DNA of 64,000 bases. Source: Nitrospinia bacterium. GTDB taxonomy: Bacteria; Nitrospinota; Nitrospinia; Nitrospinales; JAJDAT01. Below, in pieces: positions 27,910 to 64,000 of the stretch. The stretch spans positions 10,575-74,574 of the forward strand of contig JAJDAT010000032.1 in the NCBI GenBank assembly GCA_029261715.1, in the 5' to 3' direction. Numbering within the stretch: position 1 is the stretch's first letter; each line of letters starts with the position of its first letter. The notes beneath the pieces are model-generated. The model saw only the letters and a list, made by a program, of their open reading frames with translations, did not search any database and was not told the DNA's origin. The translations under genes and the position numbers were made by a program.

Positions 27910-27912
27910 ATT

Positions 27913-29225: not shown

Positions 29226-29250
29226 CCAAAGCGGCAGGAAGGAAAAAACC

Positions 29251-38952: not shown

Positions 38953-40026
38953 TTAAGGAGTGCATCCTTGCGCTACTGCAGCAAAAGGAACATTAACAGG
39001 AGTATTAAACGCAACTGCTATATCTGGTCCTGCTGCGCTTACGAAATCGGATACGATAGAATCTCCTCCTCCCACATTGGAGTTTGATGCAGGTTGGGAA
39101 TCTTGTGAACTTGAAGTAGAGTCACCACTATCAGAAGAACTCGTGTCTCCAGAACTGGTACTCGAACTTGAATCAGAATCGGAACTACTGTCAGACTGTG
39201 AAGTCGATTGTTGAGTTGAGCCTGAGTCTTGTTTAAACATGGACGAAGGCAAACTGGTTCCAATCCGTCCCAGAACAACAGTACTGATGGAATTAAAATT
39301 ACTATTAGACATGGTCTGAGGAACTGATGGGGCTTGTCCCTGCGGAATTGTGCTCACGCTATTGGCTCCCACCAACTGGCTACCCGCAACATTAGGATCG
39401 ACATTGGAAGCGCTCATAGCTCCTGTTTTATTAGCCACAATCGTTTTTGTTGGAGAGGAGCTAATAAACCCAAAGGTACCTCTGGACGATAAGTTTGCAG
39501 TTGGCGTAACGACGCGAAAATTAGAATCTTTATTTTTTTGGCTTTTGTTAATGATGTACATAGAAAGACCACTAGCTACATTGATCAATCCTTGTCTTAG
39601 TTTTTTCCCCTTATTAACCTTGTAGGAACCAATTGACATTTTAGAATTTGGACCCAAAGCCAAAAGACTATTGTCTTTAAATTTTATTTTTAGCCGGCTC
39701 CCTCTTTTTGTGCGGAATCGGTCGGATGCATAAACTTCTTGTTTGAATTTGGCGCTTTTCCAGACAGCATTTGGATCGAATGAAACTGGTTTTATACTTA
39801 ATTTACCTGGAGTGGACTTGGCTACTGGTTCCGAACCTCCCGCCATCATTTCTACAGTTCCAATTATTCCAATAATCGTCCCAACCGGTTTTTCCTCAGC
39901 GGCCCAAGCAACAGATCCGAAATGTGAAGCTACAGACCCAAAATGTGAAATAACAAGCACAAAAATTGCCGACCAAAAAATACCGGGACCAGGGTTTGGA
40001 CGCGAAAAATTTATAGAGTCCGCCAT
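38953..40026 (-). CDS. Secreted FecR-domain protein (357 aa)
   Basis: Signal peptide, FecR-like core (DRFRTKRGSRLKIKFKDNSLLALGPNSKMSI...RGTFGF), and a Ser/Asp-rich tail ending AVAQGCTP. It is the first gene of the minus-strand operon, with a 17-nt gap to the tpsA gene. Confidence 0.75.
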   Translation of the reverse strand: MADSINFSRPNPGPGIFWSAIFVLVISHFGSVASHFGSVAWAAEEKPVGTIIGIIGTVEMMAGGSEPVAKSTPGKLSIKPVSFDPNAVWKSAKFKQEVYASDRFRTKRGSRLKIKFKDNSLLALGPNSKMSIGSYKVNKGKKLRQGLINVASGLSMYIINKSQKNKDSNFRVVTPTANLSSRGTFGFISSSPTKTIVANKTGAMSASNVDPNVAGSQLVGANSVSTIPQGQAPSVPQTMSNSNFNSISTVVLGRIGTSLPSSMFKQDSGSTQQSTSQSDSSSDSDSSSSTSSGDTSSSDSGDSTSSSQDSQPASNSNVGGGDSIVSDFVSAAGPDIAVAFNTPVNVPFAAVAQGCTP

Positions 40027-40175
40027 TTTTCTCCCTCTTTTAAAGAATAATGTCCAATATGAATATTTATTTAATTAAATTATTGTAAATTTAAACAAAA
40101 AAATCAAACTTATTATTTACGGATAAACCGCTTTTATAGTTTTATATTCATTAATGATACCATTTCCTCCAAAAA

Positions 40176-40193
40176 GTAAGGAGATGGGTCACA
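40176..40193 (-). promoter_or_regulatory. Conserved 18-nt motif TGTGACCCATCTCCTTAC (copy c)
   Basis: Third copy of the TGTGA-N6-TCCTT motif, about 150 nt upstream of the FecR-like gene start (40026) on the minus strand. Confidence 0.55.
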
Positions 40194-40392
40194 TTTCTAA
40201 AGATTTGTCTTAATAAATTTCAATTCCTAAGTGATTTTCAGGTTTATTTCTGCCCCGTGGAGAAGGGGATCTCAAAGAATTTTCGTCTAAGTCCCGCAAC
40301 TAAAATCAGAAATAAAGAAAGAGCTTGAAAAAGACCCGTTCTATATGCTAATTTCTCCCTCTTTATCCATATTTTATAATGGGTTTCAGGTT

Positions 40393-40407
40393 TGTGACAA
40401 TTTCACA
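40393..40407. promoter_or_regulatory. Palindrome TGTGA-CAATT-TCACA upstream of the KAS gene
   Basis: CRP/FNR-family-like half-sites with a 5-nt rather than 6-nt spacer, 45 nt upstream of ATG 40452. Confidence 0.35.
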
Positions 40408-40451
40408 CTTGTTTCCTAATGGGACGTTTGGCATTTTTACTTCGAAACTGA

Positions 40452-41702
40452 ATGGTTGACCAAAAAAACCCAGACTGGCGGATTGTCATCACGGGTGTTG
40501 GGCTGACCTCTCCCAATGGCAATAATCTAGCGGAATACCGAGAGAATCTGCTTCAAGGAAAATCGGGTATTGAAAAAATTGATATCCGATACATGGGAGA
40601 AGTTTTAGCCGGAGTTTGCAATTTTGACGAATTCAAATACCAGAAAAAGAAAGAACGAAGAAGAGGAACCCGGGCAGGTTCGGTTGGTATTTATTGCGCT
40701 CATGAAGCTATTACCGATTGCGGAATAGAATTAGACTCCTTCGATAAATCCAGAATAGGTATTTATTGTGGCGTTACGGAGCACGGCAACGTTGAAACGG
40801 AAAACGAAGTTTTCAACATAAGCCAATATGGTTACGACGTTAAATATTGGTCGCATCATCACAACCCGCGAACGGTAGCCAATAATCCTGCGGGAGAAAT
40901 TTCTCTCAATTTAAAAATTACCGGTCCACATTATTCAATTGGGGCGGCTTGTGCAGCCGGTAATTTAGGAGTGATTCAGGGATGCCAAATGTTGAGGCTA
41001 AAAGAAGTCGATATGGCTTTAGCCGGGGGTATTTCAGAAAGTATCCACACATTCGGTATTTTTGCTAGTTTTAAAAGCCAAGGGGCTTTGGCCTGGCACG
41101 AAGATCCAGAAAAAGCCAGCCGTCCTTTTGATTCAAGCCGAAATGGCATTGTTTGTTCCGAGGGTGGTTGTTTATATACATTAGAAAGATTATCAGACGC
41201 TCAAAAAAGAGGAGCCAAAATTTACGGGGAAATTGTTGGATACGGTGTTAACTCCGACGCTTTTGATTTTGTACTACCTCAACCCAAAGGCCAAACAGAC
41301 TGTTTAAATATGGCTTTGAATAATGCGGGTTTGAAAGCGGACGACATTGACATAGTAAATACCCATGCAACTTCAACCCCACAGGGCGACATCCAAGAAT
41401 GCATCGCAATTCGCAACGTTTTTGGTAATAGTAAAAATACTTGGATTAATAACACAAAAAGCTATATAGGACATGCAATGGGCGCTGCAGGAGCGCTAGA
41501 ATTAGCGGGAAATTTACCGGCATTTGACGATAAAATCGTCCATCCCACTATAAATATTGATCAGTTGGACCCAGAATGCGCTTTAGACAACTTGGTAATT
41601 AACCAACCGAAGCCGGTTGACCAGGTAAATTACATATTAAATAACTCATTTGGCATGCTTGGCATCAATTCCGCTTTGATCGTGAAACGGTTTGAAATAT
41701 AA
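40452..41702 (+). CDS. Beta-ketoacyl-ACP synthase (FabF/FabB-type KAS)
   Basis: 416 aa. Active-site Cys in YSIGAACAAG, and His motifs NTHATSTPQGD and SYIGHAMGAAG. Confidence 0.88.
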   Translation: MVDQKNPDWRIVITGVGLTSPNGNNLAEYRENLLQGKSGIEKIDIRYMGEVLAGVCNFDEFKYQKKKERRRGTRAGSVGIYCAHEAITDCGIELDSFDKSRIGIYCGVTEHGNVETENEVFNISQYGYDVKYWSHHHNPRTVANNPAGEISLNLKITGPHYSIGAACAAGNLGVIQGCQMLRLKEVDMALAGGISESIHTFGIFASFKSQGALAWHEDPEKASRPFDSSRNGIVCSEGGCLYTLERLSDAQKRGAKIYGEIVGYGVNSDAFDFVLPQPKGQTDCLNMALNNAGLKADDIDIVNTHATSTPQGDIQECIAIRNVFGNSKNTWINNTKSYIGHAMGAAGALELAGNLPAFDDKIVHPTINIDQLDPECALDNLVINQPKPVDQVNYILNNSFGMLGINSALIVKRFEI

Positions 41703-41752
41703 TAGGCGGTAGACTTAGGTAGGGAATCATAGAGGAGAGGAGTATTACTATA

Positions 41753-42016
41753 ATGACGAGAGACGACGTTAGAAATGCGGTTATTGGAATTTTGACCGAT
41801 ATTGCGCCGGACGAAGATTTTGATGCATTGAAGGACGAAGAGAAGTTGCGAGACCAGTTTGATTTAGATTCGATGGATTTTCTAGATATCGTTATGGAAT
41901 TGAGGAAGCGATACAACATCGAGGTTCCAGAAGCTGATTACGAACAACTCGTTACTATGACAAGCTGTATCGATTATTTGCAGCCTCTTTTAAAAAACCA
42001 GCAAATGGCTAGTTAA
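41753..42016 (+). CDS. Acyl carrier protein
   Basis: 87 aa. The phosphopantetheine attachment motif is FDLDSMDFLDIVMEL. Confidence 0.8.
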   Translation: MTRDDVRNAVIGILTDIAPDEDFDALKDEEKLRDQFDLDSMDFLDIVMELRKRYNIEVPEADYEQLVTMTSCIDYLQPLLKNQQMAS

Positions 42017-42141
42017 GCAAGGTTAAATACTCGGCTGTTCTTTCCCCCTATTAGAACAGCCTCGTCACAATAGACTCAATACCTAGCCAGTATAATTTTA
42101 CCCCTCCTCAAAGAATTATTACTGAAAGTTCATACCAAAAT

Positions 42142-43527
42142 ATGAAATACGACGCCATTATTCTAGGCGCCGGACTATCCGGCTTAGCTGCTGGAATTCG
42201 ACTTGCCTGCTTCGATAAGAAAGTATGCATCGTAGAAAAACATGTCGAAATTGGCGGATTAAACTCTTTCTACCAAATGAAAGACCGATGGTTTGACGTT
42301 GGACTTCACGCCATGACAAACTATTCACCGAAGGGAGTCCGCTCTTCTCCACTTGGAAAACTTTTAAAGCAACTTCGGTTCAAACATGAAGATTTTCAAC
42401 TATGCCAGCAAAAAGAATCAGAAATCAGCTTTCCTGGAGTTTCCCTAAGGTTTTCTAATGATTTTGAACTTTTTAGGCAAGAAATATCAGAAAAGTTTCC
42501 AAACCAAATCGATGGTTTTGACCAATTAACTCAAAGAATTCGCGACCATGACGATCTATCGCTTAAAAGCGGTTTCCTATCGTCTCGATCTGTTTTGGCG
42601 GAATACCTCACGGAGCCCAAACTTGCGGAAATGTTATTTTGTCCCCTGATGTTTTATGGCAATCCCCAAGCGGACGATATGGATTTCACTCAATTCACCA
42701 TCATGTTTAAAGCTATATTTCTTGAAGGCTTCGCTAAACCTTTGGGGGGAATGCGTCACATTCTTAAACTGATGGTGGACAAATATAAAAGCTATGGAGG
42801 CGAACTGAGGCTAGGACGAGCCGTAAAATCCCTTAATTTATCAAGCGAAGAAGTTAACTCCGTAACGTTGTCTAAGGGTGAAGAGCTACAAGCGGAAACT
42901 GTAATTTCGTCAATCGGATATGCAGAAACTATGCGACTTTGCGCGCCTGAAAAATTTCCCGAGGACTCTCTACAAGATGGGGAAATTTCTTTTGTAGAAT
43001 CTCAATATGTTTTAAACGTCCAACCTTCCGAAATTGGATACGACAAAAGTATCGTTTTTTTTAATACCAAGGACGAATTTAGTTATCGTAAACCCAAAGA
43101 AATGGTAGATTTAGCTTCAGGAATAGTTTGCTGCGCTAATAATTTCGATTACCCTAAAGAACAAGAAGGCCTCATTCGATTTACTTTTTTGGCTAATCCA
43201 GACCTTTGGTTTGGGCTTTCACGAACAGAATATAAGGAAGCAAAGTCTTATTGGCAGAAAAAAACTTTGGAAGCGGTAGTCGGTTTTTTGCCCGATTTTC
43301 GCGATTCTGTGGTATTTTTAGATACTTTCACCCCAAAAACTATTAAAAAATTTACCGGTCACGCAAACGGAGCCGTTTATGGATCGCCTGTTAAAATCCG
43401 TGATGGAAAAACTCCGGTAAAAAATCTATTTATTTGTGGCACCGATCAGGGTTTTTTAGGTATTATTGGAGCCACTTTAAGCGGCGTTACAGTTGCGAAT
43501 ATTTACGGGTTAAAAGCATCTTATTAA
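42142..43527 (+). CDS. FAD/NAD(P)-dependent oxidoreductase, phytoene-desaturase (CrtI)-like family
   Basis: 461 aa. N-terminal dinucleotide fold YDAIILGAGLSGLAAGIRLA...VEKHVEIGG, and a C-terminal FICGTDQGFLGIIGATLSG. Confidence 0.7.
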   Translation: MKYDAIILGAGLSGLAAGIRLACFDKKVCIVEKHVEIGGLNSFYQMKDRWFDVGLHAMTNYSPKGVRSSPLGKLLKQLRFKHEDFQLCQQKESEISFPGVSLRFSNDFELFRQEISEKFPNQIDGFDQLTQRIRDHDDLSLKSGFLSSRSVLAEYLTEPKLAEMLFCPLMFYGNPQADDMDFTQFTIMFKAIFLEGFAKPLGGMRHILKLMVDKYKSYGGELRLGRAVKSLNLSSEEVNSVTLSKGEELQAETVISSIGYAETMRLCAPEKFPEDSLQDGEISFVESQYVLNVQPSEIGYDKSIVFFNTKDEFSYRKPKEMVDLASGIVCCANNFDYPKEQEGLIRFTFLANPDLWFGLSRTEYKEAKSYWQKKTLEAVVGFLPDFRDSVVFLDTFTPKTIKKFTGHANGAVYGSPVKIRDGKTPVKNLFICGTDQGFLGIIGATLSGVTVANIYGLKASY

Positions 43528-43596
43528 AGAATACCTTTAGATAAGTCGAAATAATAAAATAAAATTAGCTTTTAAAAATTTACTGTTGGAAAAATT

Positions 43597-45039
43597 ATGG
43601 CAAGGAATTGGTTAAAAGGAGCACAAACTCGTTACGATAGCGTTGTAATAGGCAGTGGCCTGGCAGGGATGACGGCTGCAAATATGCTCGCTAAAGCCGG
43701 TCATTCGGTTTTACTGCTAGAGCAGCATTACAATTTTGGCGGACTAGCTACCTGGTTTAAACGCAAAGGTGGGCACATCCTAGATATTTCTCTTCACGGA
43801 TTTCCTATCGGGATGATAAAAACCTGCCGAAAATACTGGAGCAAAGAGATCGCCGATTCCATTGTTAGACTCCAAGGAGTTCGCTTCGACAATCCCCAAT
43901 TCACTTTTTCCACCACCTTTGACAAAATTGATTTTACTAATATCATGCGCGAAAGATTTGGCGTCTTGAAGGAAGTGATTGACGACTTTTTTGTGACAGC
44001 CCGAGAAATGAATTTCTACGATAATCTTTCCATGACCACCCGGGATTTATTCGAAAAGTTTTTCCCTGGAAGAACCGATATTCACCGGCTCTTAATGGAA
44101 CCAATCACTTATGCAAATGGTTCTACTTTGGACGATCCAGCCGTAACCTACGGCATTGTATTTTCTAACTTCATGGACAAAGGAGTTTATACCTTTAAAG
44201 GCGGCACTGACGCGCTGGTCAAAAAAATGAAAAAAGAAATGCTAAAAAATGGCGTGGATATCCGGAACCATTGCTTGGTCGATAAAATTTTAGTAGAAGA
44301 TAAAAAAACCCGAGGAGTTCGCGTCAATGGTCGCGAAATTGAATCAGATGTTGTGCTCTCGAACTCTAGCTTACCGGCTACAATTCACAAATTAACCGGC
44401 GATGAACATTTTTCTCCAGAATTTTTAGAAGAAGCGAGAAAAGTGAGAATGAATAACAGCAGTTGCCAGGTTTATATGGGAATAAAAAAAGGCGAAAAGA
44501 TCGATTACACTGGGGACTTGTTGTTTACCTCCGTAACCGACGAGTTTAGCGCAAAAAAGTTATGCGATAAAAATGTTACCAGCAGAACATTTTCATTTTA
44601 TTATCCAGAAATCAGGCCAGGTACTAACCAATACTCAATAGTTTCTTCTACAAACGCTAATTTTGAAGACTGGGCGAATCTAACTGAAGAAGAATACCTC
44701 AAAGAAAAAGATAAGTTGATCGAATCCACCTTAACTGCGCTTGAAAAGTACGTTCCCGATATTCGCAGTAAAGTCGACCATGTGGAAGCCTCAACTCCGA
44801 AAACGTTTAAGCGTTACACTATGCATACACGCGGTTCTTCGTTCGGCACTAAATTTGAGGGACTGAAAATTAGCAAAGAATTGCCCGAACAAATTGCGGG
44901 CTTATTTCATACGGGATCGGTCGGCATCATAATGTCGGGTTGGCTCGGAGCCGCCAACTACGGAGTTATCGTTTCAAATGAAGTGGATCGCTTTCTTAGA
45001 AAAGTAAAATCCGAAAGATTAGAAACGGTAAGCGTCTAA
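43597..45039 (+). CDS. FAD/NAD(P)-dependent oxidoreductase, phytoene-desaturase (CrtI)-like family (second copy)
   Basis: 480 aa. [20 protein letters not shown]...LEQHYNFGG, and a C-terminal [21 protein letters not shown]. Confidence 0.7.
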
Positions 45040-45098
45040 TACTTCAGCGAAAGATCTTGTTTTGAGCAGAACTTTTTTCCTTCCTTTTAGTTATCCTT

Positions 45099-45842
45099 AT
45101 GCAATTTGATTTTTCCGACCAAACCGCTATCGTCACTGGAGGAACCCGAGGCATTGGTAGAAGCGTTTCAGAAGCTTTTTTAAAAGCGGGCGCTAAAGTC
45201 GTGGCAACTTATAAAAGCAACCACGATGCCGCCGAATCTTTTTGCAAAGACAACTCTCAATACAATTCCCAAATACAACTTGCACAGTTTGACGTATCCG
45301 ATAGCGAAGGAGTCGAAGGATTCTACAAACTTGTAGAAGAACGATATGGACCATTCCAAATTTTGGTTAATAATTCGGGAATTCGCAAAGATTCCGTTGT
45401 GGGAATGATGAAGGAAGAAGATTGGCGAGACGTTATTGACGCAAATTTGACCGGAACTTTTTTAATGAGCAAATTGGCGGTTCATCATCTCATGCGCCAA
45501 AGGTATGGCCGAATCATAACCATCACCTCCCCTATTGGCCGGATGGGTTTTGCCGGGCAATCTAATTACGCCGCTTCCAAAGCTGCGCAAGTCGCTTTCA
45601 CTCAATCGTTAGCAAAAGAAGTCGCCAGCCGCGGAATCACCGCTAATTGTATTTCGCCGGGTTTTATCGAAACGGATTTCATATCCGATCTATCCGACAA
45701 ACAGCGGGATGGCTATAAAGCTTTAGTTCCACTCAAACGATTTGGCAAACCTGAAGAAGTCGCCAATGCGGTATTGTTTCTCGCCTCCAAAGAAACCGCT
45801 TATATTACGGGAACCACCCTAGAAATTTCCGGCGGACTTTAA
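45099..45842 (+). CDS. fabG: 3-oxoacyl-ACP reductase (SDR family, FabG-like)
   Basis: 247 aa. TGGTRGIGRS, NNSGI and the YAASKAA (YxxxK) motif. Confidence 0.85.
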   Translation: MQFDFSDQTAIVTGGTRGIGRSVSEAFLKAGAKVVATYKSNHDAAESFCKDNSQYNSQIQLAQFDVSDSEGVEGFYKLVEERYGPFQILVNNSGIRKDSVVGMMKEEDWRDVIDANLTGTFLMSKLAVHHLMRQRYGRIITITSPIGRMGFAGQSNYAASKAAQVAFTQSLAKEVASRGITANCISPGFIETDFISDLSDKQRDGYKALVPLKRFGKPEEVANAVLFLASKETAYITGTTLEISGGL

Positions 45843-45850
45843 AAAACCAA

Positions 45851-46609
45851 TCAAATAATCAACGAAAGACAGGTTACGCCGCCATCGGCTTTTTCAAATT
45901 CACTCATTGGAATTTGAATAACTTGAAAACCGCATTCGCGTATCTTAGCAGCTAGCTTTGGGTATCCTTGTGGAGCAATCACATAACTACCCACTACCAA
46001 ACAATTAGCGGAATAACTTTCCTTCGTGGATACCTCAATAATTTGAAATTTTTTAAACGCTGTTGCCTCTATTTTGGAACAGTCCAAAATAATTCTTCCG
46101 TCTCCCAGATAAGTCGCCGCGCTTTTCAAATGAAGCCCATCCAAAACAGGGACAACAGTAATTGGTTTTTTGGTAAAGGTCTTTAAAAACTCAACGCCTT
46201 CCAAATTCGTGCGCGTAGATTCTCCAATAAAAATTTCATCTTCCGTTTGCAACACGTCTCCGCCATCCAGTGTCGCCGGAGGCAACATGTAAATAATGGA
46301 AGTGTAGCGTTCAAGCTCGGAAACAATAGATTCGCCTTCACCGCGACGAGTTTCAGCCTTCATAGAACAAAGAACCGCTTTATCTTCTAACATGACAACG
46401 GGATCTTCGACAAAAGGAGCGTCTGGAAAATTTTCCTGGGGATCTAGGTGGATTACCGAAAGACCGGCGCGCGTCAAAGCGTTTGCGTACTGACGGTGTT
46501 GATTAAGGGCTTTGCCAAAATCAATAGAATCGCTCTGGGGATGATTAGAAATAGCGTCTGCAAAACCGGGGGTGGGTTCGCGCACTAAAGCCATCGAACG
46601 ATTCATCAA
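45851..46609 (-). CDS. Dimethylarginine dimethylaminohydrolase (DDAH)/amidinotransferase-fold protein
   Basis: 252 aa. DDAH-like N-terminus (ALVREPTPGFADAIS...QHRQYANAL) and a C-terminal catalytic-Cys region ADGGVTCLSLI. Confidence 0.7.
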   Translation of the reverse strand: MMNRSMALVREPTPGFADAISNHPQSDSIDFGKALNQHRQYANALTRAGLSVIHLDPQENFPDAPFVEDPVVMLEDKAVLCSMKAETRRGEGESIVSELERYTSIIYMLPPATLDGGDVLQTEDEIFIGESTRTNLEGVEFLKTFTKKPITVVPVLDGLHLKSAATYLGDGRIILDCSKIEATAFKKFQIIEVSTKESYSANCLVVGSYVIAPQGYPKLAAKIRECGFQVIQIPMSEFEKADGGVTCLSLII

Positions 46610-46635
46610 TAACCCCCATTCCGTTTTACAAAAAC

Positions 46636-47109
46636 CTAATCAATGGTGGGAGTATTCATAAGCCGGGAGAAATTCAACATTTGAAAATGTTTCTTGGCGC
46701 CGCGATATTTTTTCATCATCGCTTTGGATGGTTTAAGACCTTCTTCGACTTTGTTCTTCTGAGCGATATAAATATAACCCTTTGTTTCAGAAAAGTCGTG
46801 GCGCGTTAGAGACATGATTTTTCTATCGTATTCATCCGGATATTGATAATGACGATCAAGCCCTGCAAGCTTTTCTTCTTCCATTTCATAAATCATCCCG
46901 ATCATCATTCCCAAATTATCGTGTGTGGGCTCAATATTAGCGTGACCCAGCCCTTCAATTCCTTCATTATCCACCGGGACTTTATTAAAAACGCGCTTCC
47001 AGGCAGAAAGAGTAACTGAATACTTGGTTGTAAAAGAAAATCCCAGCTCTTTATAAACCTTTTCGTTGATCAACTCATCATAAATAAATACACGGACAAT
47101 ATTTGACAT
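46636..47109 (-). CDS. Gamma-glutamylcyclotransferase-like (AIG2/GGCT fold) protein
   Basis: 157 aa. The N-terminal VFIYDELINEKVYKELG resembles the GGCT YGTL-type start. This is a weak assignment. Confidence 0.4.
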   Translation of the reverse strand: MSNIVRVFIYDELINEKVYKELGFSFTTKYSVTLSAWKRVFNKVPVDNEGIEGLGHANIEPTHDNLGMMIGMIYEMEEEKLAGLDRHYQYPDEYDRKIMSLTRHDFSETKGYIYIAQKNKVEEGLKPSKAMMKKYRGAKKHFQMLNFSRLMNTPTID

Positions 47110-47285
47110 TCTAGTCTCTATAGAAAGTAATTTAAAAATACAAAAAATTACGAGGTTATTTTAATCTGTGTTAGGATGCTATATTAGCAAAATAACGCGA
47201 TCAAAGCTGTTTATATTTGCGTTTATAAAGGATTTATACATCCTTTTTTCAATAAAGTTAAAGTTACCTGGAAAGGAGTGAACTC

Positions 47286-47612
47286 ATGGCCGGCAATGTA
47301 GTTGAAATCTCCGACGCCGAATTTGAATCGTCAATTATTCAAAGTGATAAGCCCGCTTTAGTGGATTTCTGGGCAGAATGGTGTCAACCCTGTAAAATGC
47401 TTGCCCCTACTGTGGAAGAAATCGCAGGCGAGTACATCGATAAAGTCAAAGTCGCCAAAGTTAATGTAGACGACAACCCAGCAATCGCTACCAAGTTTGG
47501 TATTCGCGGTATCCCTACTCTTTTGCTTTTTAAAGAAGGAAAAGTAGTTCAGCAAATGGTAGGCGTTAAGCCTAAGAGTGATATCACAAAAGCTATCGAA
47601 GAAGTTCTATGA
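47286..47612 (+). CDS. trxA: Thioredoxin
   Basis: 108 aa. LVDFWAEWCQPCKMLAP...GIRGIPTLLLFKEG. The active site reads CQPC rather than CGPC. Confidence 0.88.
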   Translation: MAGNVVEISDAEFESSIIQSDKPALVDFWAEWCQPCKMLAPTVEEIAGEYIDKVKVAKVNVDDNPAIATKFGIRGIPTLLLFKEGKVVQQMVGVKPKSDITKAIEEVL

Positions 47613-47623
47613 AATTGGTTTCC

Positions 47624-47653
47624 CCGGCTTAATGGCCAGTAGCCTTAAGCCGG
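47624..47653 (+). terminator. Candidate terminator hairpin after trxA
   Basis: CCGGCTTAA-N11-TTAAGCCGG, a 9-bp stem, followed by a weak T-tract. Confidence 0.4.
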
Positions 47654-47726
47654 TTGATTCAATTCGTTAGTCTTCAATAATCTGACCACTCTGGTCCTCA
47701 AAGGCCTTCATCCTCTGGAGCTTGCG

Positions 47727-48431
47727 ATGTCGAAAAAACTGGAATGCCTCAAAAACGTTTCTATTTTTTCGGGAATGAACGACACCCACCTTGAAGAAAT
47801 CGCCTCGATCACCATAGAGAATAAGTTCAAAAAAAATAAAGTCATTTTTAGTAAAGGCGACCGAGGAAACGTTTTATTCATTCTCACCTCAGGTACCGTA
47901 AAATTATCTCTTTTTGACCAATCCGGTAAAGAAATGATTTTAAAAATGCTTTATAAAAACGACTTCTTTGGTGAAATGTCGTTACTAGACGAATTCTTTC
48001 GTTCCGCAACCGTTACTGCCGTTGAAGATTCACAAGCTCTTCTTATTTATAGAAACGAATTTATGCGATTAATTCACCAATTTCCAGGAATCGCTTTGGA
48101 AATGTTGAAAGTCTTCATACACCGTTTAAAAACGAGCGACAAAAAAATCGTTAGTCTTACTTTTTTCGACGCGTTCCGAAAAGTAAGTTCTACTGTCATC
48201 GATTTAGCGGAGAAAACCGGACGTCAGGAAGGAAAATACACCGCTATCGACTTAACGTTAACCCGCCAGGACCTAGCCAATATGATCGGCATGAGCCGAG
48301 AAACGTTAACTCGCATTTTGCAAGAATTACACTTTCGAGAAATTTTAAACGTTAGTAGAAAAAAAATAATCATTCTCGATCAAAAAGCTCTGGAAAATGA
48401 AATTGAAAACGCGCGAGTCCCAAAACTTTAG
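47727..48431 (+). CDS. Crp/Fnr-family transcriptional regulator
   Basis: 234 aa. cNMP-binding domain (FGEMSLLDEFFRSATVTA) and C-terminal HTH (RQDLANMIGMSRETLTRIL). No N-terminal Cys cluster. Confidence 0.8.
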   Translation: MSKKLECLKNVSIFSGMNDTHLEEIASITIENKFKKNKVIFSKGDRGNVLFILTSGTVKLSLFDQSGKEMILKMLYKNDFFGEMSLLDEFFRSATVTAVEDSQALLIYRNEFMRLIHQFPGIALEMLKVFIHRLKTSDKKIVSLTFFDAFRKVSSTVIDLAEKTGRQEGKYTAIDLTLTRQDLANMIGMSRETLTRILQELHFREILNVSRKKIIILDQKALENEIENARVPKL

Positions 48432-48496
48432 CGCTTTTTTAAAATACCGTCTAACCTGCCCTTTTTGAACAAATTCCATCCTTCAGTTTTAAAAAA

Positions 48497-48514
48497 TGTG
48501 ATCTACTTCCTTTT
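48497..48514 (+). promoter_or_regulatory. Conserved 18-nt motif TGTGATCTACTTCCTTTT (copy a)
   Basis: Lies 64 nt upstream of the FecR-like ATG 48578. A TATATT -10-like hexamer at 48535-48540 places the motif centre near -42. Confidence 0.55.
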
Positions 48515-48577
48515 CTTATATAGCCATCTTGTCGTATATTAAAATAAGAGAACAAAAAAAATCATTCATAAGGCGAT

Positions 48578-49675
48578 ATGTTTTCAAATATTTCCCGGAC
48601 CTTAAATTCAAATAAATATAAAAAGTGGACTTTGCTTTCCTTTTGGATGTTAGTTCTTTCGCTCAGTTGGCTAGTTGAAGCAAAGGCGGAAGAAGAACCC
48701 GTGGGAACAATCATTGGCGTGTCTGGGGAAATTTTATACAGAACTGCGGGTGACGATCCCGTCGCAAGTAAGGATAAACCTGGCGAGACTAAACTTGCTT
48801 CTTTTACGCCCTGGGAGAAAGTTAAGTTTAAACAACCTGTCTACGCTAAAGACGAATTCAAAACCTCAAAACGCAGTCGGCTCAAAATAAAATTTAACGA
48901 CAATAGCCTCATGGCGCTAGGCCCAAACTCAAAAATGCAAGTGGGCTCATATGTTTTCAGTAAAAAAAAGAAGCTGCGTCAGGGAGTGATGAAGATTTCG
49001 TATGGGTTATCTATGTACATCGTCAACAAAACCCAACGTAATAAAAATTCCAGTTTTAGAATCGTTTCGCCTACCGCAAATTTAGCGGCGCGCGGTACCC
49101 AGGGATATGTAAGTTCTTCCGATAAGATTACTTACCTGGCAAACCAAGCCGGAGCAATGGACTCCTCCAGCAGCGATCCAAATATCAAAGGGAATCAACT
49201 GGTCGGCGCGATGAAAAAAAATTCAATTCCGGCAGGACAACCGCCAACCCCCCCGACAAACTTGACAAATAACGACCTAAGCGCCGTTAGAAACGTTGTG
49301 ATGGGACCGATAGGTATTAATCCTAACAACCCAATAATTAAAGATTTAACTCAAACTGCCCCGGTTCAAAAGAAAAAAGCTGCAAAATCCAAAACAAGCG
49401 ATAAAAGCGGAGGTACAAAAGGCGACTCCAGCGAAGAAGGCGATAGCGAGAGTTCAGAATCTAGCGAAGGTGGGGATAGCGGTGATTCCGGTGGCGATAG
49501 CGCAGATTCTGGAGGCGACTCTGGAGGCGGAGATAGCGGCGGCGGAGATGGCGGAGGCTTTGCCGACAGTTTTACATCCACCGGTAGTTCCGGAGGCGGT
49601 GGTAGTGGCGGTGGCGACTTTGCTCCTGTTAACAATCCTTTTTCACCGGCTGCTCTAAGTTCCTGTTCCGGCTAA
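48578..49675 (+). CDS. Secreted FecR-domain protein (365 aa)
   Basis: Paralog of 38953-40026, with the same core (KRSRLKIKFNDNSLMALGPNSKMQV...RGTQGY). Gly/Ser/Asp-rich tail ending ALSSCSG. Confidence 0.75.
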   Translation: MFSNISRTLNSNKYKKWTLLSFWMLVLSLSWLVEAKAEEEPVGTIIGVSGEILYRTAGDDPVASKDKPGETKLASFTPWEKVKFKQPVYAKDEFKTSKRSRLKIKFNDNSLMALGPNSKMQVGSYVFSKKKKLRQGVMKISYGLSMYIVNKTQRNKNSSFRIVSPTANLAARGTQGYVSSSDKITYLANQAGAMDSSSSDPNIKGNQLVGAMKKNSIPAGQPPTPPTNLTNNDLSAVRNVVMGPIGINPNNPIIKDLTQTAPVQKKKAAKSKTSDKSGGTKGDSSEEGDSESSESSEGGDSGDSGGDSADSGGDSGGGDSGGGDGGGFADSFTSTGSSGGGGSGGGDFAPVNNPFSPAALSSCSG

Positions 49676-50013
49676 TGGGCTCTAAAATGCTACACATGTT
49701 AAAAAAACTCACATTACTTATCGTTTTTTCGGCCCTTTTTGCGCTAAATTTTGCTTCCGCTCAAACAAAGATTCCTCCTGCCGCCGAATCGGGCCTTGCG
49801 CTCAAAATGCTTAAAAAATCGCAACCCGGCCGTTGGGACCCTCCCCCACAGGCTATACCAGAAGATCTGATCGTTCGGGAAGATGAAATTCCTGCAAAAC
49901 CCCCTACCTCGTCCGAAATTAATAAAACTATCGAGCTAGAAGTAACCTCTCCAGACAAAAACCCTACCAAAATCTCACCCGTAGAAATATTAAGAGATAA
50001 TATTCCTCACTGA
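49675..50013 (+). CDS. Small secreted Pro-rich protein
   Basis: 112 aa. TAATG overlap with the preceding stop. Signal peptide LTLLIVFSALFALNFASA. Confidence 0.5.
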   Translation: MGSKMLHMLKKLTLLIVFSALFALNFASAQTKIPPAAESGLALKMLKKSQPGRWDPPPQAIPEDLIVREDEIPAKPPTSSEINKTIELEVTSPDKNPTKISPVEILRDNIPH

Positions 50014-50070
50014 ATTTATTAAAAAAAAACAGCCAAGCTATTGAAATTACCTAAGAAAAATTATTAATTT

Positions 50071-50088
50071 TGTGATGTAGCTCCTTAC
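50071..50088 (+). promoter_or_regulatory. Conserved 18-nt motif TGTGATGTAGCTCCTTAC (copy b)
   Basis: Upstream of the giant tpsA. A TACAAT -10-like hexamer at 50108-50113 places the motif centre near -41.5. Confidence 0.55.
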
Positions 50089-50175
50089 CTTTTTCCAAAA
50101 AAAATCGTACAATTACATATAAGATCAATCTTTTCTCAAATTGAGATTTACTAATCAGTTTCAGAGGAAACGCTT

Positions 50176-53100
50176 TTGCAACGCCAACCCAACAATTTAT
50201 CCGTAAGCCGTGTTTTGAAAAACCGTTTTAATAAAATTTTAGCGGTTTTCCTTATTTATATGATCGGCGGATTTCCGACGTTAGTGTTTGCCCTACCGCA
50301 AGACGGGCAAATTGTTTCGGGACAAGGAACCATTGGTCTGCCTTCTTCAAACCAAATGGTTATCAACCAAAATACTAACCAGTTGATAACCAACTGGAAC
50401 AGTTTCAATATAGGTCAATCCGAACACGTTCAGTTTAACCAACCCAATGCAAATTCGACGGCTCTCAATCGAGTTATGGGACAAGACCCCAGCTCTATCA
50501 TGGGTAGGCTGTCAGCTAACGGTCAGGTCTTTTTATCCAATTCGTCTGGAATCATTTTTGGGCAAAACTCTAGGGTGAATGTTGGCGGCTTGATGGCCAC
50601 AACCTTAGGGATATCTAACGAAGATTTCCTCAATCGCAATTATCACTTCACACAAGACGAATCGAAACCGCTCGCGGCCATCCTCAATCAAGGAATTATC
50701 GAAGCAGGTCAAGTGGGACTGCTCGCTCCTAGAGTCGAAAACCAAGGAAAAATAATCGCCAGCTTAGGCAATGTCGCTCTGTCTTCCGGAGAAGCGGCTA
50801 TTCTCGATTTTGACGGCAGCGGATTGATCAATTTCGAAATCACCGAACCGGTTAACGGCGAAGTAAAAGACACGGATGGCAACGTTGTCGAAAGCGGCGT
50901 GATCAACTCAGGATTTGTTAAAGCGCATAACGGTAACGTAATCCTATCGGCGCATCAAGCGCGCGGTATGGTAAGAAGCGTTGTCAATAATACGGGAATC
51001 ATTGAAGCAAATAACGTCGTCAAAAAAGGCGGTCGGGTTTTTCTAATAGGCGACCGCGTTAAAAACTCCGGAAGCATAAACGTTACCGGAACGGAATCCG
51101 GACAAACCGGCGGTACCGTTCATATATTAGGAAACGAAGTCAATATTTCTGGCGGAACCATTGACGCATCCGGCGAGGCTGGCGGCGGAACGATTTTAAT
51201 TGGCGGCGACAAACAAGGTCAAAATCCAAATATACAAAACGCAACTAACACGACTGTTAGCGAGTCTGCGGTCATTAAAGCTGACGCCATCAATAATGGC
51301 GATGGCGGTAAAGTCATCATTTGGGCAGAAAACTCAACCAAAGTTTACGCGGTAATCTCCGCACGCGGCGGCGCCAACGGCGGCGATGGCGGATTTGTAG
51401 AGACTTCCGGTAAAAAGTTTCTAGACGTCACCAAAGCGGCAGACGTTTCCTCTCCTAAAGGAAAAGCCGGAACCTGGTTACTCGATCCGACCAATATAGA
51501 AATCGTCAGCGGTCCCGGTAACGGCGACGGCTCGCAAGTATCCGTAACGACTATCGAGACAGCGCTCAACGCAGGCACCAGCGTTCACATCGTTACCAGC
51601 GGCCAAGGATTGGAAGAAGGAAGCATCACCGTTTCGACAGCCATCTTGAAATCGTCTGGCGGTAACACGTCATTAACTATGACAGCGCATGGCGATATCA
51701 TCGTCAATCAATCGATCACTTCCACAAACGGAACATTAGACGTCAACCTCATCGCGGGATCAAATGTTCTCATCAACGCAGCTATTGCCACAAACGGCGG
51801 TAACTTATTAGCCGATGCAGGAGCGACCAATCTCCCGGCAAATATCTCGGGATCTTACACACCAGCGGCGCGTATTAGTGGAGCGGCAGTTGAATTACCT
51901 AAAATTGAAGTTAAGGCCGATATCACTACAGGGGGGGGCGACGTAACCCTTGGACAGTTTAAAACAAAAAGTCATTCTTTAATCGGCGGCGGAACTTATA
52001 CAAAAGAAAACGTGGCGAAAGCCGATATCCTTATTGAAAACGCATCCATCAGCACTGGTGGTGGAGATTTCAAAACCAACGGCGCTACCGTTAATTTAAA
52101 TCAAACGGTTATCAATACAGACGTGGGAAATATTAACCTGGATTCCAACATCGGTACTCCAACGTTAACATTATCTGCGAATCCTGATTTTAATCCGATT
52201 TTACTTTCAATTCCATCCATTAATATTGGTTCGAATTCTTCTCTCACCTCTCTTGGCGGGGACATTACCCTCTCCTCCAATGCAGCGGAACTCATAATTG
52301 TCGAAGAGCCTGTTTTAACCATTAATATTGAAGGCAATGCCTCCATCACAACAGAAGGCGGAAATATTCTTATTGACGGCGGCGATAACTCTATTGTCCT
52401 TGTAGCTGGAAACTTGAGCGTAGCCAATCCAAATGGAGTGGGCGGAACCATTCAAGTTCTAGGAACCTACGTAGGGATTACGGGTGATGCTGAACTCGAC
52501 GCTTCCGGCGACGAAGGCGGTGGAATCATTTTGGTTGGTGGCGATTATCAAGGCAAAAACGAAGACGTTCGCAACGCAGATAGAGCCTTCATAGCAAGTA
52601 ACGCTTCCCTGAAAGCCGACGCTTTAAGAATCGGAAACGGCGGTAAGGTCATTTTATGGGCCAACGACGTGGCGCGTTTCTATGGTTCCATTTCAGCAAA
52701 GGGCGGCGCCACTTCCGGCGACGGAGGATTTGTCGAAACATCCGGTAAAAACACCTTAGAGTTTCGTGGTGACGTAGATATCACGGCGGCGAACGGAGAT
52801 TTAGGAACCCTGGTTTTAGACCCACAAGACATCACCATCGCCGACGGATCTGGCGGCGCGGACGACACGCAAGTATCGGGCGATTCCACAGCCCTATTTG
52901 CGGATGGGGGAGCGGTTACTTTCACTATCTCAGAGCAAACTTTGGAAGGGTTAACCGGAAACATCATCCTGCAAGCAACCCAAGACATTATCATCAACGA
53001 CCTGACAACCGATGGCGTTTTAAATTTATCCAATCTGACGTCGGGCGAGTCCTTTGTCTTACAAGCCGGACGGCATATAACATTTAATAACACGGCCAAC

Positions 53101-56100
53101 ACTATTTCCACTAGTGGCGGCAACATTCATTTAGAAGCGGATTCGGTACACAGTTCAGCGGGAGCCGCAGACGGAACCGGAGCTCTCACTACGGGGATTT
53201 TATCCACCAGCGGCGGCGCGATAACCTTGATCGGAACCGGTTTTACTCTGGGCGGAGCTATCAATTCCGGAAGCGGCAATATCAATATTGCCGAAGCCGT
53301 CAATGGAGGAGCCTTTAGCTTGGGTTCCCTGGATCTTAGCGACGCTGAGGCGGATTTAATCACCACTACGGGTACTTTAACAATTGGTCAAGCCACAACA
53401 GCAGGAACCGATGGAGCCGGAACGGGCGCAACAACCCTCAATGCTTCGGTAGTTACCATAAACACTATTTCCAATACTACGGCAAGCAATGTTGCCATTT
53501 CAGCCACAAGCAACATCACTTTTACGGGCGGGGCATCTACCTTCACCGGGAACCTTACCGTAAGTACCACCACCGGCGCCATCGCGGTTAATGTCGATGC
53601 CCGGTCAAATGGCGCCGTGACCATGACCTCTACGAGTTCAACTATAACCGTGGCAGCCGACGCTCAAATCGTTGCCGAAGACGACGCTACCGGATCAAGC
53701 GCATTGACTCTTACCGCTTCAGGCGCGGTAACACTGGGCGGAACCACCGGCGGTAATGGTACGGAGAACCTTGAAAATGAAGGAACCGGCAACGTTTCGG
53801 TGACGTCAGGCGGTCTTGTTCTTAGTGGAGTAAAAACCATCGGTACCGGAACTGGATCAATTATTATCGATGTTGGTAGTAACGACATCACCGACAACGA
53901 CTCCGCAGATAACGATTTCTTTTCAAATGGGGACGTTACCCTTACCATGGGCAATGTCGGCGCCAACACTGGCAACAACGCGCTCCGCTTAGCAAGCTCC
54001 GGTGGCGAATTAGGCAATACTTTGACCGTCAATATTAACGGAACCGGAAAAACCGCGTATATTTCGACGCACTCTACCGATGATCCGTTTAATACTATCA
54101 ACGTCACTTTGGCTGACGATCAAAGTGGTTTTAACTATGTCACCAGTCCAGCTGTGGGAACCGACACAATTAGCGGCGCGGCAGGAGCAAGTAAACACGA
54201 CCTTTCCTTTGATCTGAGCGATACCAACACGACCCTAAATTACACAATCACTGAAGCGGCCGCCAAAATGGATATCGTGTTGGGGTCCGGGGCCGGGACA
54301 GGAGCGATTACTCTCACCGCCGACGATATAGACATTAACGCCGTTTTGGGCGTTTCGGGCGGGTCTGTGACTCTTAAACCTAACGACACCACAAGAACCA
54401 TTGGTCTCGGCGGTGGAACCGGAGACTTCAATTTGTCCGACGCCGACATTGCCAACATTACCGACGGTCAAACCTCTATCACAATTGGCGCGGTCGGTGG
54501 CACTGGCGCGGTAGGTATCACTTCAGCTACATTCACCGATCCTATTACCATTCGTGGCGGGGCAATGACGGTCGAAGGTATCAGCGCGGCAGCTAATAAC
54601 GTCACATTAACCTCAACCAGTACCATTGCCGATACAGCAGGCGACGACACAACTGTCGACATCACAACCTCGGGAACATTAACGCTGACCAGTTCTGGAG
54701 CGATCGGGTCCACTGCTTCGAATTCGCTCAATCTTGATATAGGCAATTTGGCGATTACTTCCACGGGAGGAAGTGGGGCCGTTTTCATAACAGAAGCGGA
54801 CGCGCTCACCTTGGGAACAGTCAACGCCGGAACCGGCGCCATAACCCTATCAGCTGGAGGAAGTATTACCGATAACACCTCAGCAATCACTGCGGGGAAC
54901 CTAACTATCACGACGACAGCTTCTGGTGGCGCCATTGGCGCATCGGGAACAGCGCTTAATACGACGCTTTCGGGAACCTTGACGGCAACGGCGTCAACAG
55001 GTACAGGCGGCGGAATCTTTATAAGCAATACAGGTAATCTACTCATCGGGGCCGTCAACGCAGGCTCAACTTCCGGCGATACGGTAGAATTAATCTCAAC
55101 CACTGGTATGACCAACTCCAGTTCTGCGATCACGGCAGAAGATTTAACCTTAACGGTTTCCGGAGCAGGCGCTGCTATCGGCGCTTCCGGAACTAGCAAC
55201 GATATCAACATAACGTTGACCGGAACTTTAACGGCAACCGCTTCAAATGGAGCAGGAGGAATCTTCGTTGGCGAAACCGGAGCCATGCTGGTAGGAGCCG
55301 TTAACTCCGGTACCGGCAATATGGAGTTCACCACGACTACTACCTGGGACAACACATCCGGTCTCACTGTAACGGGCGCGGCGTTAACCATCACCGCCGA
55401 TACTGGCGTTGGTCTTAACGAGAGCATAACAACTACCGGAGCGGTTATCATCGACGCTGACTCAGGCGGCGAGGGGGACGGCAATTTCGATATTGCTACT
55501 ACCAAGACATTAAACAGTGGTGGTAATACCATGTCGATTACATCCGCCAACATCATCCTGACTGGTAATCTTAATTCCGGAGCGGCCGCTACAACCTTGT
55601 TAGTTTCCGATGGGGGAACCATGGGGCTAGGCGGAGGCGCAGGCACTTGGTCCTTAGATGATGCAGAGCTTGGACGAATCACCGCCACAGGTTTAACTAT
55701 AGGTGACGCCACCAACGGCAACATAACAGTAGACGGTATCACTACCGGCAATAGCGACCAAATTACCGGAACGGTAACTTTAAATGCTACAACGGCTGCA
55801 GGGACGATCACGTTCAACGGGGGCACTTCAACATTTAATGCCTTAACCGCCAATGCCGGAAATGGGATTAACGTTAATATCGACCTTGATACCATTGTCG
55901 GAGCTCTCACCTTCGACGCCGATAGCGATAACAACCAGAGCGGAGCTTTTTCAGTCGCTACATTGACAACGGTCGCCACTAACAATAGCGCTATCAATGT
56001 CACGGCTCACACCTTTGATCTTAGCACTGCAACCTCCACTCTTGACGCCGGGTCGGGCGATGTTACCCTATTACAATCTTTGGGAGGGAATACCATTAGC

Positions 56101-62573: not shown

Positions 62574-64000
62574 ATGATACTTTTCGTTTTAACATTTTTG
62601 CTTTTCTTCGGATGGAGCCCTCTCAGCGAGGCTCAGATCACCATTCCGCCCGCCGGAGAAGCCGGTATTGCCGAAAAATCTTTGCGGCAATCTCAACAAA
62701 AACCATTCAATCCTCTGCTGCAAGAAAAAGCGGAAATCATCACCATTGAAGACAGTAGAGAATTAGTCGATCCCGGCGCCGGTCCTTCGTTTTTTGTGAA
62801 AGAAGTAAAAATCGAAGGGAACACTTTATTCGATAACGAGATCTTAGATCCCATTGTCGATTTAGGCGGCGAGGGATTAGAATTAACTTTGGGTATCCTG
62901 TCTCTAATGGCGCAAGAGGTTTCCGCCCACTATTCACAAGCGGGTTATTTTTTAGCCAAAGCCTATATCCCAGAACAAGAGTTGATCGACGATACCGTCG
63001 TTATGAAAATCGATGAAGGAAAAGTTGGCAAAATCTCGGTCGAAAAAAACAAAAGAACCAATGCAAAAGATCTATTAAAACGAATGCAACCGGTTGCGGA
63101 CGAAGATATTCTTAGAGAAGAAACTTTGGAACGCACTCTTCTGGAAATCAATAGCTTAGCCGGTATCAAAGCGCGATCAATTTTACGCCCTGGGAAATTG
63201 CCTGGCACGTCGGACTTGGTTCTTGAAGTTACCGAAACAAGCCCTTATTCATTCAGCTTTGACGTGGATAACTTTGGTTCCGCATTTACCGGTGAAAACC
63301 GAGCGGGAATTACAGCCACGGCTGGCAGTACTTTAGTTTTGGGCGACTTTTTCCTTTTCCGAGGCGTGGCTTCTGAATTGGATCAACAATCATATACTGT
63401 TTCTTATCAATATCCACTGACCGATTTGGGAAGAAAAACCCTCAAATTTTCTTATACCTACTCAGAACAAACGTTGGGAGCCAGTTTGGTCGCGTTAAGA
63501 GGCGGTGGTCGCACACGACTTTTCAATATGGAATATGGTCAAACTTTATTTCGAGACAAATCTTCGGGACTCAATTTTCGAATGGGTTTCGATCATAAAA
63601 AGTTCGTTAACTTTGCATTGGGTAGCACCACTAGTAACGACGTTATTCGCGACGTTTATGCCGGGATTAGCGGTAATTTTAGCGACTCTTTTTTAGGGAA
63701 TAATATTTTCGATTGGAAAGTTCAATATGGAATTTTTGCAAACGATAGCGCATCTCTTCCTTCTCGCGTTGACGGTAATGCCGATATCTTTTTAACTTCG
63801 TTAAATCTAACTAGATACCAGGGAACGCCATTTTTAAACAGTTACTTTATTTGGAAAGCAAATACACAACTCGTCAGTAGCCGCACTCTATCTCCCGATC
63901 AATACGCAGTCGGCGGTTATGGCACGGTGCGTGGATTCCCATTAGCGGAACAATCTGGCGACTGGGGATATAATCTAGCCAGTGAATACGTATTGCCCTT
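62574..64000 (+). CDS. TpsB transporter (ShlB/FhaC/HecB family, POTRA + beta-barrel), 3'-truncated by the window end
   Basis: Not in the track because no stop codon is reached. Manual translation from ATG 62574 gives MILFVLTFLLFFGWSPLSEAQ...FFVKEVKIEGNTLF...VVMKIDEGKVGKISVEKN...LERTLLEINSLAGIKARSILRPGKLPGTSDLVLEV...QYAVGGYGTVRGFPL, which stays open to 64000. Confidence 0.88.
   Translation, partial: MILFVLTFLLFFGWSPLSEAQITIPPAGEAGIAEKSLRQSQQKPFNPLLQEKAEIITIEDSRELVDPGAGPSFFVKEVKIEGNTLFDNEILDPIVDLGGEGLELTLGILSLMAQEVSAHYSQAGYFLAKAYIPEQELIDDTVVMKIDEGKVGKISVEKNKRTNAKDLLKRMQPVADEDILREETLERTLLEINSLAGIKARSILRPGKLPGTSDLVLEVTETSPYSFSFDVDNFGSAFTGENRAGITATAGSTLVLGDFFLFRGVASELDQQSYTVSYQYPLTDLGRKTLKFSYTYSEQTLGASLVALRGGGRTRLFNMEYGQTLFRDKSSGLNFRMGFDHKKFVNFALGSTTSNDVIRDVYAGISGNFSDSFLGNNIFDWKVQYGIFANDSASLPSRVDGNADIFLTSLNLTRYQGTPFLNSYFIWKANTQLVSSRTLSPDQYAVGGYGTVRGFPLAEQSGDWGYNLASEYVLP

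Follow-up and report, generated by a model that had tools for sequence, protein, structure and literature searches.

What switches on the genes for FecR-domain proteins and very large two-partner-secretion exoproteins in Nitrospinota? The question is raised by a stretch of 64,000 nucleotides from a Nitrospinia bacterium (contig JAJDAT010000032.1; 'the window' hereafter means this whole stretch), in which three FecR/TpsA units are each preceded by a short motif, TGTGA-N6-TCCTT, and in which one copy of the motif follows a gene encoding a Crp-like regulator. The explanation that we favour, and consider fairly probable, is that the three copies (boxes a, b and c) are predicted asymmetric sites of this adjacent Crp regulator, which would act in class II fashion at a and b. 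The case rests on position, orientation and conservation rather than on the recurrence of the motif as such. A sequence-only reading of the window had proposed that the locus is a small regulon of the adjacent regulator, and the position of the boxes, their conservation and the CRP-type recognition helix of the protein all support that proposal as a prediction.

The three 18-mers on which the sequence-only reading was built were re-read at the coordinates and on the strands given for them. As had been claimed, one copy lies upstream of each FecR/TpsA unit, and all are intergenic, in sense orientation and 81-152 nt upstream of their genes: box a is 66 nt 3' of the crp stop codon and 81 nt 5' of the FecR-365 start codon, box b is 105 nt 5' of the giant tpsA start, and box c is 152 nt 5' of the FecR-357 start codon. 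The consensus left half TGTGA and the 6-bp spacer, taken at the outset as marks of a CRP/FNR-type site, are present in all three, and AAATGTGA is found in box a, in box c and in nine of nine orthologous sites. The number of invariant positions had been overstated; it is 11 of 18 (positions 1-5, 9 and 12-16) rather than 12. The pattern TGTGA-N6-TCCTT has exactly three matches in the window compared with 0.11 expected from shuffled sequences, and no further exact match occurs in the 64 kb. When one mismatch is permitted, three more and unrelated matches appear, which is not above chance, and two of these three fall in coding sequence.

The same three sites are selected by a matrix that owes nothing to the window. 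It was built from nine orthologous sites on four related contigs (L001, L003, L011 and L012) with the window left out, and of about 128,000 window positions it gives the three highest ranks to boxes c, a and b, with scores of 29.6, 28.9 and 17.0, respectively. The fourth-best match in the window scores 11.0 and lies inside coding sequence. In the four related contigs themselves the relaxed pattern is confined to the orthologous promoters.

Footprinting upstream of orthologous FecR/TpsA promoters, which had been put forward earlier as a check, gave a supportive picture, with TGTGA fixed in 12 of 13 cases (five of five lineages at promoter a, four of four at b and three of four at c). Box a is kept in L001, L003, L011 and L012, box b in L001, L011 and L012, and box c in L001 and L011. 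The right half is TCCTT across the relatives with two single variants, TCCTA (box b of L012) and TCTTT (box c of L001), and the 6-nt spacer varies freely (TCTACT, CCTATC, TCTACC, CCTAGC, TGTAGC, CGTATC, CCCATC, CTTGTT and TCTATC). Downstream of the boxes, the -10 block of promoter a, CGTATATTA, is invariant in five lineages and that of promoter b, CGTACAAT, in four.

The protein encoded next to box a has the architecture expected of a reader of such sites. Its assignment to the Crp/Fnr family is borne out by a Pfam cNMP_binding domain (PF00027, E = 4.4e-23, residues 33-118) and a Crp-type helix-turn-helix (HTH_Crp_2, PF13545, 9.6e-16; PF00325, 4.2e-07). The nearest relatives in the PDB are Corynebacterium GlxR (E = 4e-29) and Mycobacterium tuberculosis CRP (3e-27), together with Escherichia coli CAP, Thermus thermophilus Crp and Vfr; the best FNR-type matches are much weaker (E ~1e-14). 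The N-terminal cysteine cluster of FNR is not present, the only cysteine being at position 7, and by these sequence characters the 234-aa protein is CRP-type, not FNR-type. Its homologues also assign the source organism to the Nitrospinota. It is 30% identical to CAP, in an alignment whose CAP sequence was verified against 1g6n, and its recognition helix SRETLTR aligns with CAP SRETVGR, which holds R180, E181 and R185, the residues with which CAP reads the TGTGA half-site. The helix motif R-E-T-x-x-R is kept in 17 of 18 aligned members of the subfamily, with E, T and the last R invariant, and the contacts to the cyclic-nucleotide phosphate are kept as well: GE, corresponding to CAP G71/E72, and RS, corresponding to R82/S83.

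Promoter geometry is consistent with activation at two of the boxes. The putative -10 hexamers that had been placed behind a and b, TATATT and TACAAT, both stand at the stated positions, and the distance from box centre to the first -10 base is 30.5 nt at a, 29.5 nt at b and 26.5 nt at c. For a start 6-7 nt past the hexamer, the box centres would lie near -42.5 (a) and -41.5 (b), which fits the class II arrangement suggested by the sequence-only reading. A consensus promoter scan at a and b found no -35/-10 pair and no -35 element, and it is because the -10 is conserved but the -35 absent that both promoters are read as putatively activator-dependent and class II. The candidate extended -10 of box c is kept in the window and in L001, and reads TGGCATCAT in L011.

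A wider view of the subfamily comes from 80 metagenomic loci with Crp homologues of 33-47% identity, 475 kb in all. Perfect TGTGA-N6-TCACA palindromes occur 13 times in this sequence, compared with about 0.45 expected by chance, and all 13 lie in the flanks of crp, which make up 11% of it. This argues strongly, on comparative grounds, for the classical CRP box as the site of the subfamily. The palindromes typically stand about 90-110 bp upstream of crp or 10-20 bp downstream, and the upstream position suggests autoregulation of crp; unlike many of these distant homologues, the window gene has no box upstream of it. Boxes also follow crp in a set of loci with Crp identities of 44-52% (Table 1), often in tandem and whatever gene comes next. 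There it is regularly the promoter-proximal box whose right half is weaker (TCATA, TCATT, TCCTT or TCCTG), and a -10-like hexamer starts 37 nt past the start of the proximal box in L004 (GATAAT), L006 (TATCAT), L008 (TATAAT) and L115 (GATAAT). The proximal sites of L004 (TCATA) and L008 (TCATT) are nearer to the TCACA consensus than the window boxes. A box of the TGTGA-N6-TCCT type follows crp in the window clade as well as in L005 and L115, and L117 has it in the form TCCTG, with varying next genes; TGTGA-N6-TCCTTTTCTT is common to L005, L115 and box a. From this comparison the window clade appears to have retained only the proximal box of a tandem-box ancestry.

The genes behind the boxes belong to a wider cassette. 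A FecR-based scan, taking one genome per species, returned 23 loci, all from Nitrospinota, and brought out a conserved cassette in which TpsB, FecR and TpsA are accompanied by a CHASE2-domain nucleotide cyclase; besides L004 and L014, it is present in eight loci (L023-L025 and L029-L033). The crp gene adjoins the cassette in the window clade, in L004 (TpsB-Crp-FecR-TpsA-CHASE2 cyclase) and in L014 (Crp-cyclase...TpsB-FecR). In L004 the FecR, TpsA and cyclase genes all run in one direction, overlapping by 10 nt at one junction and separated by 48 nt at the other, and since they form an apparent operon the boxed promoter would also drive the cyclase, giving positive feedback. Because relatives' TpsB-FecR-TpsA cassettes carry a CHASE2 cyclase, a likely circuit would run from an envelope signal to the CHASE2 cyclase, the cyclic nucleotide, Crp and finally FecR/TpsA expression. 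A bolder version, which we regard as tentative and doubtful, takes TGTGA-N6-TCCTT(TTCTT) not for a decayed palindrome but for a dedicated hybrid promoter element, in which a Crp half-site is joined to a conserved promoter-proximal TCCT motif, which accompanies crp across Nitrospinota, and which together with a CHASE2 cyclase, a periplasmic FecR-domain partner and giant TpsA exoproteins would make up a self-contained feedback circuit.

At the molecular level the favoured explanation can be put as follows, with binding, activation, transcription starts, ligand and the cyclase link all inferred. A Crp dimer loaded with cyclic nucleotide would read the distal half AAATGTGA through its R-E-x-x-x-R recognition helix and would contact the proximal half more weakly, this half (TCCTT) keeping the inner T and C of TCACA. 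Boxes a and b would sit about 41-42 bp upstream of the start, in place of the missing -35, and Crp bound there would act as a class II activator that recruits RNA polymerase. Box c would probably drive an additional promoter, dependent on Crp and lying upstream of a constitutive one.

Several observations weigh against this explanation. The right half TCCTT agrees with TCACA at two of five positions, the T and C mentioned above, and against the full symmetric consensus TGTGA-N6-TCACA the boxes match at 7 of 10 positions, a level common by chance, and are missing from the list of matches of at least 8 of 10; a scan of the window for that consensus with at most two mismatches returned 16 sites where 18.4 were expected and did not retrieve the three boxes. 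The TCCTT half was picked post hoc, hence a correction by simulation. TGTGA occurs 77 times on the two strands of the window, 18 times in intergenic DNA, and in 71 of 300 first-order Markov simulations (about 24%) there was a 5-mer with three or more occurrences after TGTGA-N6, so that recurrence alone is not evidence. The overall divergence of the intergenic spacers among the close relatives is only 17-30%, and the footprint is therefore shallow; at the orthologous position of box c in L019 the box is missing. At c the -10 starts 34 nt after the box start, 3 nt nearer than at a and b (37-38 nt), and complete sigma-70-like promoters lie downstream. Both promoters fall within a block of about 60 nt (40050-40110, minus strand) that is identical in four lineages, and because this conserved block holds complete promoters, FecR-357 probably has a constitutive promoter besides any Crp-dependent one. 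In the regulator, CAP T127/S128, which contact the adenine, align with S137/D138, so the ligand, cyclic AMP (cAMP) or cyclic GMP, is uncertain. No box was found upstream of tpsB in the window and no cyclase gene, CHASE2-type or other, in its 64 kb; past its 3' end, the only contig with the exact GIY-YIG protein found between the giant tpsA and tpsB stops 53 nt beyond tpsB. Lastly, in 18 more distant Nitrospinota cassettes that lack a neighbouring crp, no convincing CRP-like box stands upstream of tpsB, FecR, tpsA or the cyclase, and the wiring to Crp would therefore be lineage-specific.

Among the rival explanations, the one that survives best holds that the boxes are genuine but bound by another Crp/Fnr paralogue or by an unrelated factor whose gene lies elsewhere in the genome, the adjacency of crp being coincidental. 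A conserved asymmetric TCCTT is not the expected preference of a symmetric CRP dimer, and Nitrospinota can hold several Crp paralogues, as in the tandem pair of L008. Like boxes nevertheless follow crp in many divergent relatives irrespective of the next gene, and the distal half, including its AAA flank, is the CRP consensus arm, for which the adjacent regulator has the matching helix; we consider this rival unlikely. A Crp protein that binds the boxes but represses, or only modulates by promoter occlusion, is a scenario to which we give a low probability. The absence of a recognisable -35 at a and b is typical of activator-dependent promoters and the class II spacing to the -10 recurs in L004, L006, L008 and L115, which both argue for activation, even though a protein bound at the -35 position, which the site overlaps, can block RNA polymerase, and box c lies about 110 bp upstream of its complete sigma-70-like promoters, an arrangement not typical for activation.

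Could the similarity be a leftover of duplication of a FecR/TpsA unit, or chance, with no regulatory role? FecR-365 and FecR-357 are indeed paralogues, with 47-52% identity, and the simulated recurrence of 5-mers lends this reading some plausibility. At about 50% protein identity, however, neutral upstream DNA would be randomised, and box b precedes tpsA, not a FecR paralogue. The flanks of the boxes do not align, and the half-sites are fixed while the spacer changes across lineages. In addition, all three copies are rightly placed and oriented, and the window-independent matrix selects exactly these, which makes a leftover or chance origin very improbable. That the CUCCUU stretch acts in RNA, as an anti-Shine-Dalgarno-like element pairing with the ribosome-binding site in a long leader, is least likely of all: the minimum-energy fold of copy c does pair UCUCCUU with the AGAGGGAGA ribosome-binding site (z = -2.07), but copies a and b have no such pairing and their folds do not surpass those of shuffled sequences (z = 0.02 and -1.03), Rfam gives no match, the invariant TGTGA is left unexplained and the boxes lie upstream of conserved -10 hexamers.

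Two further candidates were tried and rejected. The first was a Shine-Dalgarno sequence on the opposite strand (GTAAGGAG being the reverse complement of CTCCTTAC), for which a and b have no start codon at a usable distance and c has merely a 9-codon open reading frame (ORF). The second was a promoter of an extracytoplasmic function (ECF) sigma factor, suggested by the FecR name; the proteins consist of a signal peptide and a FecR domain only, with no anti-sigma domain, no ECF sigma gene is nearby, and the box has no AAC-type -35.

The favoured explanation, Crp binding with class II activation at a and b, is highly reminiscent of E. coli CRP. At class II promoters such as galP1, CRP recognises a 22-bp site, AAATGTGATCTAGATCACATTT, and natural class II sites often combine one good half with one poor half. 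The two systems share a two-domain regulator with an R-E-x-x-x-R helix, the 6-bp spacer, a distal arm that in box a (AAATGTGATCTA) matches the consensus arm exactly, and site centres that precede the -10 by about 29.5-30.5 bp, a -35 element being absent. They differ in that the proximal half in the window is a conserved TCCTT, not a degenerate TCACA, in the S/D pair at the adenine contacts and the 30% identity, in a regulon that is apparently local and lies beside the regulator gene rather than being global, and in the host, a chemolithoautotrophic member of the Nitrospinota. GlxR and M. tuberculosis CRP (Rv3676), global regulators in Actinobacteria, bind sites of the TGTGA-N6-TCACA type; their recognition helix ends in K (RETVNK), not R as in the window protein.

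Precedents are also available for the targets. In Pseudomonas aeruginosa, cAMP-Vfr directly activates the two-partner secretion operon exlBA, and the Vfr box is limited to one lineage, other species with the same operon having no box (PMC7049718). The locus described here resembles that case in that the core promoter of a TpsB/TpsA system has a CRP-type box immediately upstream and in that the box is lineage-restricted. Unlike the window regulator, Vfr acts globally and its gene lies elsewhere, exlBA comes without a FecR-domain gene or CHASE2 cyclase, and in the window it is the transporter gene tpsB that has no box. In Sinorhizobium meliloti, CyaD1, CyaD2 and CyaK, all CHASE2 adenylate cyclases, act with the Crp-like protein Clr to control smc02178/smc02177 (PMC5498481, PMC4222275, PMC13001267), and the Clr target SMc02177 is a periplasmic FecR-domain protein (PMC5498481). 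A Crp-like receptor, a CHASE2 cyclase and a FecR-domain protein likewise co-occur in the Nitrospinota cassettes. The Clr box, however, is TGTT-N8-AACA (PMC5498481) and not of the TGTGA-N6 type, the Clr cascade has no two-partner secretion component, and the cyclase is not in the window. Our search of the literature turned up no work on Crp regulation in Nitrospinota and none on CHASE2 together with two-partner secretion.

Table 1. Boxes, promoter elements and genes of the window, followed by crp loci of other Nitrospinota with the boxes found after crp.
Feature	Position	Strand	Details
Box a	48497..48512; 18-mer 48497-48514	+	TGTGATCTACTTCCTT; 18-mer TGTGATCTACTTCCTTTT
Box b	50071..50086; 18-mer 50071-50088	+	TGTGATGTAGCTCCTT; 18-mer TGTGATGTAGCTCCTTAC
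Box c	40178..40193; 18-mer 40176-40193	-	TGTGACCCATCTCCTT; 18-mer TGTGACCCATCTCCTTAC
Putative -10 for box a	48535..48540	+	TATATT; starts 38 nt after box start
Putative -10 for box b	50108..50113	+	TACAAT; starts 37 nt after box start
Candidate extended -10 for box c	40154..40159	-	TGgTATCAT; starts 34 nt after box start
Complete sigma-70-like promoters downstream of box c	40107-40062	-	TTGATT-17-AATAAT and TTTACA-16-AATATT
crp-like gene, proposed regulator	47727..48431	+	234 aa; cyclic-nucleotide-binding domain and Crp-type helix-turn-helix
FecR-365, FecR-domain secreted protein	48578..49675	+	365 aa; Pfam FecR 1e-09
orf112, small ORF	49675..50013	+	112 aa; signal-peptide-like N-terminus
Giant TpsA-like exoprotein	50176..61533	+	3785 aa; DUF5649 repeats
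GIY-YIG ORF	61669-61974	-	between giant tpsA and tpsB
tpsB (ShlB/POTRA transporter)	about 62574..64000, cut by window end	+	tblastn
FecR-357, FecR-domain secreted protein	38953..40026	-	357 aa; Pfam FecR 4e-10
tpsA, downstream of FecR-357	36008-38935	-	975 aa; Pfam TPS 3.2e-32
tpsA, in tandem with the 975-aa tpsA	33143-35980	-	945 aa; Pfam TPS 2.7e-33
fabF/acyl carrier protein/desaturase/short-chain dehydrogenase cluster	from 40452, between box c and thioredoxin	+	
Thioredoxin gene	47286-47612	+	
L004			Crp 51%; after crp TGTGACGCGGATCACT, then 23 bp on CGTGATCTACGTCATA; next FecR-TpsA-CHASE2 cyclase
L005			Crp 50%; after crp TGTGCCGTGGATCACA, then TGTGACCTGTTTCCTTTTCTT; next gene HU
L115			Crp 52%; after crp TGTGTCGAAGATCACG, then TGTGACATGGTTCCTTTTCTT; next gene HU
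L006			Crp 48%; after crp TGTGACTCACGTCACG; next a 77-aa ORF
L008			Crp 44%; after crp TGTGATAAAGATCACA, then TGTGACGTAGATCATT; next a second crp
L117			Crp about 50%; after crp TGTGATATTTATCACA, then TGTGATCTAGATCCTG
L116			Crp about 50%; after crp TGTGATACATGCGCCA

The target genes and their surroundings show further features. At its N-terminus the giant ORF matches the first 400 residues of the 975-aa TpsA with 54% identity, orf112 is kept in close relatives (56-74% identity in L001, L011 and L012), and the window tpsB is 52% identical to TpsB of L004 by tblastn, the full gene being present in L114. The FecR-domain proteins of the window (48578-49675 and 38953-40026, the latter on the minus strand) and of L004 (5867-7183) carry long C-terminal low-complexity tails rich in Ser, Asp and Gly, behind which comes a conserved C-terminal motif, D-F/I-A...VN-x-P...C, whose cysteine in the penultimate region is invariant. 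The leader of the giant tpsA holds a perfect palindrome, TCTCAAATTGAGA, at 50134-50146, about 14-27 nt past the inferred transcription start; it is 100% kept in all four lineages between variable flanks, and could be the operator of a second regulator or a leader hairpin. A second palindrome, TGTGA-CAATT-TCACA at 40393-40407, shares the divergent intergenic region of box c, 45-59 nt 5' of the fabF start codon; its spacer is 5 nt instead of 6, and because it is not kept in L001 or L003 it is probably not a Crp site.

The GIY-YIG ORF is bracketed by 37-nt inverted repeats (61634-61670 and 62054-62090, 92% complementary), with a third, direct copy at 61534-61571 immediately after the giant tpsA stop codon and no other occurrence in the window. 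By its layout this region looks like a small mobile or repetitive extragenic palindrome (REP)-like element that split tpsA from tpsB. Mobile-element genes also occupy about 15400-31000, among them an IstB-like ATPase (16606-17460), a MobA/VirD2-type relaxase (20714-21913) and a large serine recombinase (29077-30864), and this region is probably an integrated element just upstream of the tetratricopeptide repeat (TPR) gene and the tpsA genes. Elsewhere in the phylum, L022, L026 and L031 share a different block upstream of FecR, roughly CCTCTGTATAAyCGyAACTAAyTGwAACTAAAAGA...ACCTAACATACAATT, with no CRP-like box, and a different regulator may control FecR/TpsA there. In L016 (1434-3915) and L018 (3658-6149), two tandem genes encoding a cyclic-nucleotide-binding domain together with HATPase_c (ATPase/kinase-like) stand near the TpsB-FecR-TpsA cassette; judging from their domains, the products may represent a second, non-Crp kind of cyclic-nucleotide receptor linked to it.

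In the ocean, nitrite is oxidised mainly by the Nitrospinota, whose gene regulation and cell-surface biology are almost unknown. The mechanism proposed here remains textbook CRP class II activation. If it is true, a cyclic-nucleotide signal turns on very large two-partner-secretion proteins together with their FecR-domain partners, and a concrete set of regulator, operators and targets would be available for an uncultivated lineage. It would also carry the module of CHASE2 cyclase, Crp-like regulator and FecR-domain protein beyond the rhizobia, where it has been studied so far, into a distant phylum and into two-partner secretion. Should the more tentative circuit built on a hybrid promoter element hold as well, it would point to cyclic-nucleotide surface or contact signalling in marine nitrite oxidisers.

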